64,000 bases of DNA, from NCBI GenBank assembly GCA_902803165.1, contig CADCOS010000141.1:1037-65036 (forward strand). Reading direction: 5' to 3'. The position numbers were made by a program, and so were the translations under genes. Source of the DNA: an uncultured bacterium (GTDB taxonomy: Bacteria; Cyanobacteriota; Vampirovibrionia; Gastranaerophilales; Gastranaerophilaceae). The notes beneath the pieces were generated by a model. The model was not told the origin of the DNA. It made no database searches and worked only from the letters and a program-made list of their open reading frames with translations. Position 1 is the stretch's first letter. Each line of letters begins with the position of its first letter. Shown piece after piece: positions 2,437 to 61,890 of the stretch.

Positions 2437-2454
2437 GTTACAATCTGTTAAAAT
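2437..2454 (+). promoter_or_regulatory. HLR1-like direct repeat GTTACAAT-CT-GTTAAAAT
   Basis: One mismatch to KTTACAWW-NN-KTTACAWW, located in a divergent intergenic region. Overlaps the palindrome TAACAAATTTGTTA (2427-2440). Confidence 0.55.
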
Positions 2455-2476
2455 ATACTTAAGAAGTAAGCAGGGA

Positions 2477-3367
2477 ATGAATAAGAGAATTTTTAAAATT
2501 ATTTTTTTTGTCTTTTTATTGAACATGTCCTTAAATATCGGGCATGCTTTTGACCTTGACGAGACAGTAGATGATGAAATCAGAAAAACTTATAATGATA
2601 CAAAATTAATAAATGATTCAGGGAGGGATACGGTTAAGCCATCTAATAATTCGTCTAATGATTCCGGTAACGAAGATTTACCCGAGCTGCCAAGCATAAT
2701 AAAGCATGTTCAATCTGAAAAAAAATCGGATGATCTTTCTAATTATGAAAATGTTGAGCCGCCTAAGTCATACATTCAATATAAAGGCGGAAATATTTGT
2801 TTAAAAAAGGGTACGTCGATTTTAGTATCAAATTTAAACCAAATATCTGATTGGCAGACCAAGGGGGCAACAGTCAAATTCAAAGCTAAATCAAATATTC
2901 AGGGTACAAAGTATACAATACCTGCGGGAACTATTTTCAAAGGAGAAATTGTTGAATCTCATCAACCTCAAATAACATGCAATGGCGGTTTGGTATCAAT
3001 AAAAATTTATTCTATGTTATACAAGGGGCAAACAGTGCCTGTTAATGCTTATATTATCAGAGCAAATGATAAAAAAATTTTTTTAAATGATATAAAAGGA
3101 AATAGGACTTACCTAAAAACTATGTGGAAAAAAGGCGGATGGGGAAGAAATATTTTTAACCGAATGATGACACTAACTGCTAAATTGGGCTCGGATACGA
3201 GTACATTACTCCTTTCTCCGTTTCCGGCAGCGTACGGAACAATTTGTTTGGGGCTAAATGCTTTGACATCACCTGTAACAGCGTTTTTCTCAAAAGGCGG
3301 ACATGTCTCTATTCCGGCAGGAAGTGTATTTAAGATAAAATTATTAGAAGATTCTTATATAGATTGA
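2477..3367 (+). CDS. Secreted hypothetical protein, beta-rich C-terminal domain (TrbI/VirB10-like by eye)
   Basis: Signal-peptide-like N-terminus MNKRIFKIIFFVFLLNMSLNIGHA from ATG 2477, IPAGT/IPAGS motifs, Gly-rich hydrophobic insert. Confidence 0.75.
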   Translation: MNKRIFKIIFFVFLLNMSLNIGHAFDLDETVDDEIRKTYNDTKLINDSGRDTVKPSNNSSNDSGNEDLPELPSIIKHVQSEKKSDDLSNYENVEPPKSYIQYKGGNICLKKGTSILVSNLNQISDWQTKGATVKFKAKSNIQGTKYTIPAGTIFKGEIVESHQPQITCNGGLVSIKIYSMLYKGQTVPVNAYIIRANDKKIFLNDIKGNRTYLKTMWKKGGWGRNIFNRMMTLTAKLGSDTSTLLLSPFPAAYGTICLGLNALTSPVTAFFSKGGHVSIPAGSVFKIKLLEDSYID

Positions 3368-4158
3368 GCGGATTTTTTCTTATCAGCAATTTTTTTGCTT
3401 AGTTTTTTATCTTTTTTAAGGCATTTTTTTTCATATTTATCAAGCCTTTTTGTTTCTTTCTCTTGTAATTTTTCGTACTTTAAGGCTTGTTTCTCTTTTT
3501 TCTTTAATATTTTAGCCGTAATTTTTTCCGCTTTTTCCTTTTTTATGTGTTTAACCTTAATGTCATCACCTTCTTGAAGATCAATAGGCTTGCCTTTTAA
3601 CCAAAACCAAAATATTGAATTGTCATAAGCATTGAAAACGCCTGCCTTGAACCAATTGTCGTGTTTTTCCCTTTGGATGGCACCTTTAGTAAAGAAATAT
3701 GCTATATCAACGGGAGCAAAGAATATAAAACATGAGCCAACAATTGATGCAGCTTGTGTTAGTACTATTTCAGAACTTAATATAGCAGCGTCTTTTCCGT
3801 CAATAGGTTCGTATTTTCTTGCAATAAAATAAATATCAGAATTTGTTGTATCCACTGCAGTTTCCGAATCGGCAGGTTTATAATTTAGTACTTTGCAGAT
3901 AAAAAAACCGCTTTTATGCCATCTCTTTTCTCTCTGTGCTTCGCAAATTTTCGCTGTAACTGTCGAATTTGCGGGAATTATAACCTCGTCATTTCGAATG
4001 TAGTCTTCCTTAGTTGTAAAACTAACTTCCTCAGGAAGAGTGTACATATTAAATTCATTGTTGATTTTAGCCGTTGCGTTTGTATTTTTTGCCGCAAACG
4101 CAGGTGTGCAAAGTAAAATTGTAATTAAAATTCCGCTAAAAACTCTCTTGATTAACAT
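3355..4158 (-). CDS. Secreted/membrane hypothetical protein with Lys-rich C-terminal tail
   Basis: Signal peptide ending PAFA, IIPANSTV motif, hydrophobic central insert, KEK-rich tail. Confidence 0.75.
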   Translation of the reverse strand: MLIKRVFSGILITILLCTPAFAAKNTNATAKINNEFNMYTLPEEVSFTTKEDYIRNDEVIIPANSTVTAKICEAQREKRWHKSGFFICKVLNYKPADSETAVDTTNSDIYFIARKYEPIDGKDAAILSSEIVLTQAASIVGSCFIFFAPVDIAYFFTKGAIQREKHDNWFKAGVFNAYDNSIFWFWLKGKPIDLQEGDDIKVKHIKKEKAEKITAKILKKKEKQALKYEKLQEKETKRLDKYEKKCLKKDKKLSKKIADKKKSAQSI

Positions 4159-4487
4159 AATGTTATAAATGCCATACCTAAAATTATACTTAATAATTGT
4201 ATTATACTAAATAAATTTTCTTTTTCAAAGGTGGCAAATTTACCTATAATAAATGGGCTTGCGCCAAGTAATAACAAAATGATTTTATTTATATATGAAG
4301 GTATAAATATTGCAACAATTATTGCACATATAACATAGAGCATGATTAATAGGCCTATAAATGCTACAAACTCTGATATCTGTACGTTATCAGCAATTTT
4401 GTGAAGAAAGATTTTCTTTGCTGATATTGTTAATACCAACCATAAAGAAATAACAAAAAATATAATTTTAAGTGTTATCAGCAACAT
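4152..4487 (-). CDS. Small integral membrane protein (about 4 hydrophobic segments)
   Basis: 111 aa, almost entirely hydrophobic; overlaps both neighbours (translational coupling). Confidence 0.75.
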   Translation of the reverse strand: MLLITLKIIFFVISLWLVLTISAKKIFLHKIADNVQISEFVAFIGLLIMLYVICAIIVAIFIPSYINKIILLLLGASPFIIGKFATFEKENLFSIIQLLSIILGMAFITLC

Positions 4488-60163: not shown

Positions 60164-60947
60164 TACGCACGCCCATTTGGATATGAGAATAAATAATGCA
60201 GGTGAAGACGAAACCCAAAATTCTAACGAACAAGTCAAAGAAATTATAGCCGAAATGGAACAATACGGTGTCAAAAAAGTTATAATTCCGTCCGTTGAGG
60301 TTAAATATCTTAACCGTATTTCCGAGATTGCTTTAAAATACGATAACGTATATTCAATGGTCGGGATTTTCCCGACGGAAGCAAAAACATATAATGATGA
60401 AGTTGAAGAAAAACTGCTTGAAACTGTAAAAAACAATTCCAAAACTGTGGCAGTCGGTGAAATAGGACTGGATTATTATTGGGATAAAGAGTTTAATGAT
60501 GTTCAAAAAAATGTTTTTATTCGTCAAATTAAACTTGCGAATAAGTTAAATTTGCCTATAGTTGTACATGACAGAGAGGCTCATAAGGATTCTTTTGACA
60601 TTTTAAATGAGTACAATATTAATTCTAAAGTGCTTTTTCACTGTTTTTCAGGCAGCGTAGAATTTATGAGAGAATGCGTTAAAAAAGGGTGGTTTATTGC
60701 AATTGGCGGTGTTGTAACTTTTAAAAACGCAATAAAGATGAAAGAAGTTGCTAAAGAAGTTCCTTTGGATAAATTGGTGCTTGAAACAGATTCGCCTTAT
60801 CTTACACCTGTTCCGTACAGGGGAAAACCTAATAAGCCTGCTTATGTTAAATTTGTAGCAGAAGAAATTGCTAAAATAAGAAACATTTCATTTGATGAGA
60901 TTGCTGAAATTACTTCAAAAAATGCTGAGAAATTTTTTAATATATAA
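60144..60947 (+). CDS. tatD: TatD-family nuclease
   Basis: IDTHAH, GEIGLDY, HDREA, HCF, ETDSPY. Confidence 0.95.
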   Translation: MTKYLIDTHAHLDMRINNAGEDETQNSNEQVKEIIAEMEQYGVKKVIIPSVEVKYLNRISEIALKYDNVYSMVGIFPTEAKTYNDEVEEKLLETVKNNSKTVAVGEIGLDYYWDKEFNDVQKNVFIRQIKLANKLNLPIVVHDREAHKDSFDILNEYNINSKVLFHCFSGSVEFMRECVKKGWFIAIGGVVTFKNAIKMKEVAKEVPLDKLVLETDSPYLTPVPYRGKPNKPAYVKFVAEEIAKIRNISFDEIAEITSKNAEKFFNI

Positions 60948-61013
60948 ATAACTTAATTTTATAAAAAATGTATTTTGCTATTTATCTTTAAGTGACTATG
61001 CTAAAATATTTTT

Positions 61014-61826
61014 ATGAAAAAAGAGCGTTTAGACAAAGTTTTAACGGATTTAGGTTATTTTGAAACAAAAAGCAAAGCTTCTGCTGCAATTTTAGCCGGG
61101 GATGTTATGATAGGGACGGAAGTTATAACAAAATCAGGTTATCAAATTGATCCCTCTAAAGAATATGACTTTAATATAAAAAAAATGCCCTATGTTTCCA
61201 GAGGAGGTTTTAAGCTTCAAAAAGCATTGGATGCTTTTAACATAAATGTCACCGATAGAATCTGCTTTGATGCAGGTGCTTCAACGGGAGGATTTACCGA
61301 TTGCTTGCTGCAGCACGGAGCTGAATTCGTTTATGCGGTTGATGTCGGATATGGTCAATTGGATTGGAAAATAAGAAGCTCGGAAAAAGTCAAAACTATT
61401 GAAAAAACTAATTTAAAGATTTGTACAAAGGCTGATATATATGCAGACAATGAGCCTATAGCCGATTTATTGGTTTCTGATTTATCATTCATATCGTTAG
61501 ACAAAGTTTTACCTAATTTAAAAACCTTGCTCAATCCTAATTATCACGAAATGATTTGCCTTATAAAACCGCAATTTGAGGCGGGAAAAGATTTTGTTGA
61601 AAAGGGCGGCGTAGTACGGGATAAAAATATTCATCAAAAAGTTATACAAAACGTTATAGAATGTGTGCATTCTCTGGATTATAAAATTTTTGGTTTAACA
61701 TATTCATCAATAAAAGGACCGGCGGGTAATATAGAATTTCTTATTTGGTTTGGAACAGAGGGAGAAGAATGCGTTCCGGATATTAGTGAACTCGTTGAAA
61801 ATGCACACAAAATCTTAAATCAATAA
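61014..61826 (+). CDS. tlyA: TlyA-family rRNA 2'-O-methyltransferase
   Basis: S4 domain RLD, YVSRGG.KL, GASTGGFTD, DLSFISL, KPQFE, GNIEF. Confidence 0.95.
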   Translation: MKKERLDKVLTDLGYFETKSKASAAILAGDVMIGTEVITKSGYQIDPSKEYDFNIKKMPYVSRGGFKLQKALDAFNINVTDRICFDAGASTGGFTDCLLQHGAEFVYAVDVGYGQLDWKIRSSEKVKTIEKTNLKICTKADIYADNEPIADLLVSDLSFISLDKVLPNLKTLLNPNYHEMICLIKPQFEAGKDFVEKGGVVRDKNIHQKVIQNVIECVHSLDYKIFGLTYSSIKGPAGNIEFLIWFGTEGEECVPDISELVENAHKILNQ

Positions 61827-61872
61827 AGCCGAATTGTACTCAATAAGTGTATTTAAGGCACTTAAAGATATG

Positions 61873-61890
61873 TTTACATTTCTTAATAAT
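61873..61890 (+). promoter_or_regulatory. Weak HLR1-like box TTTACATT-TC-TTAATAAT
   Basis: One perfect half-site plus a half-site with 2 mismatches. Confidence 0.3.

Follow-up and report, generated by a model that had tools for sequence, protein, structure and literature searches.

The window analyzed here, 64,000 nucleotides of contig CADCOS010000141.1, belongs to a metagenome-assembled genome (MAG) of Gastranaerophilales/Melainabacteria (1.78 Mb in 177 contigs, 34% G+C). Among its genes are an orphan gene at 14483-15451, small genes after 36529, an orphan gene at 40936 coding for a protein of 1934 amino acids (aa), a flagellin gene at 57238-58236, and a small open reading frame (ORF) at 56874-57032. 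These are the clear targets in the window of the element studied here, a box that fits the pattern KTTACAWW-NN-KTTACAWW. This pattern is the HLR1 consensus of RpaB, the response regulator known from oxygenic cyanobacteria.

The direct repeat in the window and in the genome

The window was scanned with this pattern, and 100 dinucleotide shuffles of the same 64 kb served as the background. Seven matches with at most one mismatch were found where 1.00 was expected (standard deviation 1.12), a count reached in 1 of the 100 shuffles, and matches with two mismatches numbered 30, against 13.7 expected. Taken alone, the evidence of the window is suggestive. The seven sites are those that an earlier note on this DNA had placed at 2437, 7847, 15535 (perfect), 36275, 36428, 40849, and 58387. 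Three weaker sites listed in the same note proved to be two-mismatch matches; those at 182 and 57111 look real, and the one at 61873 is probably due to chance.

For the whole genome, genes were called with a simple dicodon model, which gave 1768 genes and 90% coding DNA, with 9.8% of the genome being intergenic. The pattern was matched 110 times with at most one mismatch and 38 times perfectly, and although intergenic DNA is so scarce, 91 of the former and 37 of the latter sites lay within it. When TTACA pairs on the same strand were counted in intergenic DNA, 45 had a spacing of exactly 10 bp, and each of the other distances between 5 and 40 gave only 0-7 pairs. This peak was not seen in coding DNA, and the inverted pairs of TTACA and TGTAA on opposite strands showed no spacing peak. 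With a weight matrix, 87 intergenic sites reached 16 bits or more, where a fifth-order Markov model of the intergenic DNA predicted 2.7, and about 105 non-overlapping intergenic sites scored at least 14 bits; as the matrix was derived from the sites themselves, its enrichment test is partly circular, whereas the TTACA spacing test is not. The pattern read backward, which has an equal composition, occurred only 2 times in the genome compared with the 38 perfect forward matches. The strongest conservation in each half-site falls on a single C (98% and 91%) and on the flanking A's (96-100%), in an otherwise A/T context.

Because of the 10-bp spacing peak, the excess of weight-matrix sites, and the rarity of the backward pattern, we conclude that the direct repeat is almost certainly a real cis-element. 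Enrichment over an AT-matched background, which had been proposed as a check, held against the higher-order backgrounds as well. The half-sites were also considered as mere -35 (TTTACA) or extended -10 (TGTTACAAT) boxes, which was ruled out by the 10-bp period and by the separate core promoters located downstream.

Core promoters and target genes

Almost all intergenic sites (90 of 91) lie in promoter-bearing gaps; 43 sites are in divergent gaps, 35 in co-directional ones, and 1 in a convergent one. The earlier note had described the sites as mostly divergent, which is true for 5 of the 10 window sites, and as reading TGTAA in the sense direction, which was borne out genome-wide, since TGTAA reads toward the downstream gene at 29 of the 35 sites in co-directional gaps. 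In these gaps, the start codon typically lies 69-94 nt from the box.

When read in the sense orientation, many boxes precede the sequence TAAAGTTT-N11-GCCG(A/T)(T/A)A. Promoters of sigma-28 (FliA) have the consensus TAAAGTTT-N11-GCCGATAA, and this pattern was used to define sigma-28-type promoters, of which the intergenic DNA contains 36. Their assignment to this class is based on the -35/-10 elements of the TAAA-N15-GCCGATAA type at the 36 matches and on the presence of a FliA gene in the genome, the FliA/WhiG sigma factor being encoded at C32:29943-30605 (230 bits, cut-off 189.6). About eight sigma-70-family genes are present in the genome, several of them FliA/WhiG-like.

A box is carried by 27 of the 36 sigma-28-type promoters, and 9 are without it. 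At 25 of the 36, a box of at least 10 bits stands at one and the same offset, with 17 nt between TGTAAM and TAAAG. The remaining boxed promoters have it 1 base closer in one case and 10 bases further in the other, and no box was found at any other of the 59 offsets tested. In the window, the box at 36273..36294 is separated from its sigma-28-type promoter by 26 nt instead of 15 nt, that is, by about one helical turn more. Assuming that transcription starts about 8 nt after GCCGATAA, which is the usual distance from the -10 element at sigma-28 promoters, the 18-bp box would span about -69 to -52, with its centre near -60.

A second type of core also follows the box. Here, GCAAWWW or TGAAATT takes the place of TAAAG, and (G/C)TTTAWA comes about 21 nt later; a dozen copies of the near-identical cassette ACTTTATATATATGTAAG ("class B") are included in this type. 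Positional peaks after the 22-nt box were seen for GMAAWWW at 14-16 nt (16 of 104 sites) and for BTTTAWA at 36-38 nt (11 of 104), which suggests a second, non-sigma-28 class of core promoters using the same box. The pooled logo of 90 sites showed no clear -10 or -35 element at a fixed distance because the promoter classes were mixed in it; when the classes were split, the core elements were resolved. The cassette ATACTTTATATATATGTAAG was observed about 38-40 nt after the box and before unrelated orphan genes, at 131-141 of the window and at about 12 other places (C28:84, C143:2111, and C147:25912 among them); it is also present in family f9 (L169).

The 87 sense-oriented target proteins were compared with one another, and 80 of them were singletons, unrelated to each other. 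A Pfam scan of 40 targets found no family in 23, nearly all sigma-28-driven targets among them. The targets with a match include two flagellins (the target set contains four members of this family), ribosomal protein S10 (rpsJ), glutamate dehydrogenase, RNase Y, phosphoglucomutase, a GT2 glycosyltransferase, a Na/Pi-PhoU transporter, a sigma-70-family factor, and class III and class IV aminotransferases. The earlier view that the targets are envelope, filament, and secreted-protein genes is thus too narrow, since the flagellins and many orphans are joined by rpsJ, the three enzymes named after it, and the sigma factor. The flagellin genes gave no match to the sigma-28 pattern used. The only scanned sigma-28-class target with a Pfam match, G000:C106:13483-15144, has an EF-hand calcium-binding motif near its N-terminus.

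The members of the fast-evolving, sigma-28-driven orphan family to which 14483-15451 belongs start with MG(L/M)AASQARL; about 110 N-terminal and about 135 C-terminal residues are conserved around a highly variable middle part. Paralogues were found at G000:C6:7921-9534, C52:4728-5945, and C154:41-1018, and possibly at 36818-37147 of the window, and the orphan family is present in about half of the genera of the taxonomic family, often in multiple copies. In the AlphaFold2 model of the 14483-15451 product, which is a confident one (pLDDT 84.9), long helices at both termini enclose the variable middle. This product matched no Pfam family and had no PDB relative by sequence profile, and the fold search returned only generic coiled-coil matches (E above 0.01, TM ≤0.33). 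Its layout is similar to that of flagellin, but homology is not detectable. Orthologues from other genera have a short leader element in common, GTTACTAAG, located about 20-35 nt ahead of the start codon and directly preceding the ribosome-binding site GAAAGGA (loci L091, L092, L095, L096, L097, L100, L104, L110, L111, and L114); it may be a post-transcriptional operator. The 1934-aa product of 40936-46740 (+) matched no Pfam family. A second giant orphan, C51:19778-25501 (1907 aa), lies behind a box and a sigma-28 promoter.

The features of the window are collected in Table 1.

Table 1. Boxes, core promoters, and the best-boxed target gene of the window.
Feature	Position	Strand	Score (bits)	Remarks
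Best box ATATTGTAAATTTTTGTAACAA	15533..15554	-	24.8	Perfect HLR1 18-mer at 15535-15552; TGTAA toward gene 14483-15451
Sigma-28-type core promoter TAAAGTTTTTTACTAATTTATCCGTAA	15492..15518	-		About 17 nt downstream of box 15533..15554
Orphan target gene, 322 aa, MGMAASQARL...	14483..15451	-		
Box TGCTTGTAAATTTTTGTAACAA	36273..36294	+	20.1	1 mismatch to HLR1
Sigma-28-type core promoter TAAAGTTTTTGAAAAAAATGCCGTTA	36321..36346	+		
Second box in the same gap AAAATGTTAACATTTGTAAAGA	36426..36447	+	21.4	81 nt before ORF 36529-36798
Box before the 1934-aa orphan gene 40936-46740	40847..40868	+	15.1	69 nt to start codon
Box toward flagellin gene 57238-58236	58385..58406	-	18.2	150 nt upstream of start
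Weaker box	57109..57130	-	13.5	2 mismatches; exactly 17 nt from sigma-28-type promoter
Sigma-28-type core promoter TAAAGTTTTAGAAATTTTAGCCGATA	57068..57093	-		Before small ORF 56874-57032
Two-strand box	7842..7866	.	19.1 minus, 13.4 plus	Divergent gap 6926-7825 (-) / orphan 7930-9372 (+)
Box followed by class B cassette CTTTATATATA (131-141)	180..201	-	16.5	Upstream of small ORF ending at 102
Box absent from the first list	6892..6913	-	14.8	101 nt upstream of gene 5305-6792
Weak overlapping boxes, ambiguous	2432..2456	.	13.0 each strand	Divergent gap 2433-2524
Weak candidate box absent from the first list	48469..48490	+	12.3	About 80 nt upstream of 48570-48959
Weakest listed site	61871..61892	-	10.2	No core promoter in register; TGTAA away from any gene start

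Flagellin_N and Flagellin_C domains (Pfam) were found in the product of 57238-58236, and gene 5305-6792 codes for a class III aminotransferase (Pfam Aminotran_3). The ORF 36191-36427 (78 aa, or 30 aa from the ATG at 36338) is probably spurious, because its ATG belongs to the -10 element aTGCCGTTAa of a sigma-28-type promoter. The box at 7842..7866 is 21 nt from the start codon of 6926-7825 on the minus strand, a repressor-like position, and 66 nt from 7930 on the plus strand; judging by its sequence, the 6926-7825 product looks like a P-loop GTPase. The bases at 2432..2456 can also be read as a sigma-70-type promoter TTAACA-N17-TAAAAT. A sigma-28-like match TAAAGCTTTGGATATTTTCAGCCGTAA at 52580-52606 (+) lies inside the coding region 52458-53318 without a box and is probably a chance occurrence.

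The candidate regulator and conservation in relatives

RpaB is an essential master regulator of cyanobacterial photosynthesis genes and is retained in plastids. Four OmpR-type winged-helix proteins are encoded in the genome studied here. One of them, C154:1166-1957 (263 aa), scored 353.8 bits with the RpaB equivalog model NF045944 (cut-off 330; model positions 1-229 of 229), and the other three scored 207, 195, and 135. Of 14 well-known control genomes, only 1 passed this model. With the YycF model, which was its third-best NCBIfam model, C154:1166-1957 reached 217 and did not pass the cut-off of 340. Its nearest relatives, with 72-92% identity, come from MAGs titled Candidatus Gastranaerophilales, Vampirovibrio, or Cyanobacteria bacterium (including UBA1186). 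Outside the melainabacteria, it is closest to Synechococcus proteins (65% and 54%), and the non-cyanobacterial matches do not exceed 46%. The recognition helix and wing, DTRVVDVHISRLRSKLE..NPELILTARG.GY.FQR, have few substitutions compared with Synechococcus RpaB, and the non-RpaB relatives and the genome's other two regulators diverge far more over this region. Thus the RpaB orthologue that the earlier note had proposed to look for was identified by its passing of NF045944 and by its near-identical recognition helix. The note had also mentioned RpaB-like homologs in Melainabacteria, and indeed RpaA, RpaB, and NblS homologues have been described there, with their function stated to be unknown (Di Rienzi 2013, PMC3787301).

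Perfect matches to the pattern were then counted in the relatives, with the reversed pattern as a control. All 19 genomes of the window's genus contained 34-61 matches (control 0-5), the other genera of the same family 9-38 (control 0-12), family f8 11-28 (control 1), and the other families of the order 2-9 (control 0-5). The large genomes of oxygenic cyanobacteria, which served as a positive control, contained up to 15 matches (control 0-2). The composite module, defined as the box, 16-18 nt, and then TAAAGTTT, was present 9-31 times in each of the 19 genomes of the genus (control 0), 5 times in one f8 genome, and 0-2 times in the other families.

The box was conserved in position upstream of orthologs too, which the earlier note had named as a check. 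Homologues of the orphan 14483-15451 (orthologues or paralogues with 30-52% protein identity) were compared at 24 loci of other genera, and no fewer than 16 of these loci retain TGTWA-N5-TGTWA 32-34 nt ahead of TAAAG, while the flanks around the box and promoter have diverged so far that they are unalignable.

RpaB orthologues with 80-95% identity were found in all near-complete relatives but one (G025 of family f8), and FliA was found in all 30 relatives that could be scored; the presence of fliA was for this reason rejected as the cause of the high box number in some families. In two genera of family f8, a strong box stands about 185 nt upstream of rpaB (21.0 bits in L182, G143:C21; 18.4 bits in L183, G146:C20), suggesting autoregulation there. 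The idea of an ancestral regulon was kept in part. Oxygenic cyanobacteria share the motif and the regulator, but the great size of the target set and its link to sigma-28 promoters represent a lineage-specific expansion.

Proposed regulation from the box and comparison with known systems

The boxes may be regarded as HLR1-type upstream activator sites, each made of two head-to-tail half-sites WWTGTAAM with a 10-bp period, a layout that would suit a tandem dimer of an OmpR/PhoB-family response regulator. It is very probable that such a dimer is what the box binds. The likeliest binder would be the single RpaB orthologue, C154:1166-1957, and we consider it probable that this protein activates from about -60. 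Bound to one face of the helix at this distance from the predicted transcript start, RpaB would recruit RNA polymerase in the class I activator fashion, and it would do so before at least two types of core, the sigma-28/FliA type (TAAAGTTT-N11-GCCGATAA) and the GCAAWWW ... TTTAWA type including ACTTTATATATATGTAAG. Besides the flagellins, the putative regulon of about 100 promoters would include about 25 orphan genes driven by sigma-28 and numerous further lineage-specific genes, along with some housekeeping genes. In Synechocystis, HLR1 sites centred at -66 to -45 are those of RpaB-activated promoters, for which a class-I-like polymerase contact has been proposed, and sites centred at -38 to +23 from the transcript start are associated with repression by RpaB (Riediger 2019, PMC6525291).

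Several observations weigh against activation by RpaB. The position near -60 is calculated from the usual distance between the -10 element and the transcript start, which is a weakness. RpaB and FliA are encoded in every family of the order, yet in several families boxes are scarce and the composite module is absent, so the presence of the regulators does not predict the size of the regulon. No box was found upstream of rpaB in the window's own genus or family. The best score for NblS/Hik33 was 141 bits, against a cut-off of 1000, among three histidine kinases from a simple motif search that is possibly incomplete. Confidence in RpaB is held down mainly by G025 (99% complete), which keeps boxes although rpaB was not detected in its whole assembly. 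Its best matches to RpaB are orthologues of the two other OmpR-type regulators of the present genome, and it retains 5 box-plus-sigma-28 modules and 11 perfect boxes, of which four stand at exactly 17 nt from a sigma-28-type promoter. Moreover, rpaB is adjacent to a small zinc-ribbon gene in two sibling genera, and in G025 this gene lies mid-contig (C7:55000-64000) without rpaB beside it. Meanwhile, three sibling genomes of G025 have RpaB at 366-370 bits, and the genes flanking rpaB show little conservation of order even among the sibling genera. Either rpaB of G025 is on an unbinned contig or was lost recently, or another regulator reads the box there.

Such a regulator could be an orthologue of C147:12243-12953 or C70:1679-2374, which are both widely conserved in the order; G025 has the two of them (66% and 56% identity) and keeps its boxes in the sigma-28 register. 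Several OmpR/PhoB-family proteins, such as WalR and Bacillus PhoP, bind direct repeats resembling TGTAA. However, the recognition helices of the C147 and C70 proteins, RMLRVHVGGLRNKIE and ETIRVHIRHLRSKVD, are unlike that of RpaB, which is conserved with Synechococcus, and the motif matches the cyanobacterial HLR1 exactly, down to its 10-bp period. As G025 is a single MAG whose siblings have RpaB, it is plausible that its rpaB went unbinned or was lost recently, and we regard another regulator of this family as an unlikely binder of otherwise real sites. It is more doubtful still that the repeat acts independently of a bound regulator, as phased curved DNA, a UP-like element, or a contact of the polymerase alpha subunit. 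The A/T-rich sequence with its 10-bp period is what such an element would look like, and the fixed register with the -35 element places it between about -52 and -69, the region from which UP elements and bent DNA exert their effect; but the conserved C and flanking A's of each half-site point to base-specific readout, the sequence equals a known regulator site, the box precedes promoters of at least two sigma classes and occurs at start-proximal positions too, and a quarter of the sigma-28-type promoters (9 of 36) do without it.

Two further explanations concern the number of sites. Promoter cassettes could have been spread by duplication or recombination, so that the number would reflect copying and not selection at each site. 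The core and leader of the class B sites (ACTTTATATATATGTAAG) are indeed nearly identical over about 40 nt, and several pairs of boxes are more similar than the consensus demands. Copying would account for the spread of the boxes but not for their function, and it is compatible with regulation by RpaB; as an explanation of the set it is very improbable, given that most target proteins (80 of 87) are unrelated singletons, that neither the sequence between the box and the -35 element nor the surroundings of the module are conserved, and that only the box and the core elements survive across genera. Chance matches in AT-rich intergenic DNA are to be reckoned with at 34% G+C, as the one shuffle that reached the seven window matches and the chance-like site at 61873 illustrate. 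For the whole set, chance is refuted, to near certainty, by the 45 pairs at 10 bp, the 87 sites against 2.7, the 38 matches against 2 reversed ones, the register at a single offset, and the cross-genus conservation.

If RpaB does read the box, its role in a non-photosynthetic lineage becomes testable through a defined operator, about 100 candidate promoters, and a fixed sigma-28 geometry. The promoter design, in which a response-regulator box is locked in register with an alternative-sigma core, is unusual, and it marks a large co-regulated set of orphan genes in an uncultured gut lineage, which may guide functional work. The finding also has a bearing on the re-use of the RpaB system at the rise of oxygenic photosynthesis. 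We found no paper in the searchable literature that joins HLR1 with Melainabacteria. A bolder proposal, which we make tentatively and hold to be rather unlikely as a whole, is that in gut Melainabacteria FliA (sigma-28) and a second alternative-sigma promoter class cannot work without RpaB as a co-activator, through which a signal other than light would be linked to motility and to a large set of rapidly evolving orphans; among the orphan proteins, some may then resemble filaments or leave the cell via the flagellar apparatus. If this were true, the ancestral job of RpaB would have been the global control of alternative-sigma promoters, which was later adopted for photosystem genes in oxygenic cyanobacteria.

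The promoters share the core TAAAGTTT-N11-GCCGATAA with the late flagellar promoters of sigma-28 (FliA/SigD) in E. coli, Salmonella, and Bacillus, and the genome likewise codes for a sigma factor of the FliA/WhiG family. Classical sigma-28 promoters are controlled via the anti-sigma factor FlgM and need no upstream activator. Unlike them, three quarters of the promoters described here carry a box at a fixed upstream offset, and the genes they drive are mostly orphans. The WalR (YycF)/PhoP boxes of Bacillota, TGTWAH-N5-TGTWAH or TT(A/T)ACA repeats with an 11-bp period, are bound by close relatives of RpaB. Their half-site is near-identical and also arranged head-to-tail, but the period differs, 45 pairs being found here at 10 bp and 7 at 11 bp. 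At class I promoters, the site of CRP is centred at -61.5, and CRP binds an inverted repeat as a symmetric dimer. The position of the box and the one case displaced by about a helical turn fit recruitment through polymerase contact, as at class I CRP promoters; unlike the sites of CRP/FNR, the repeat is direct and oriented, with no peak for inverted pairs. The analogy between RpaB and class I CRP activation has been drawn before (Riediger 2019, PMC6525291).

The closest system is HLR1/RpaB (Ycf27) of Synechocystis PCC 6803 and Synechococcus PCC 7942, which has the same consensus, (G/T)TTACA(T/A)(T/A)-N2-(G/T)TTACA(T/A)(T/A), with the same 10-bp period. Shared with it are also the orthologous regulator with its near-identical recognition helix and the similar size of the putative regulon (about 100-150 promoters). 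With transcription starting at the usual distance from the -10 element, the centre of the box would fall within the activation range of -66 to -45. In contrast to the cyanobacterial HLR1 sites, the boxes described here are strongly oriented and locked to one offset from alternative-sigma cores, and no NblS/Hik33 equivalog was detected. The host, unlike oxygenic cyanobacteria, has no photosynthesis genes, and its targets are flagellins, sigma-28-driven orphans, and some housekeeping genes.

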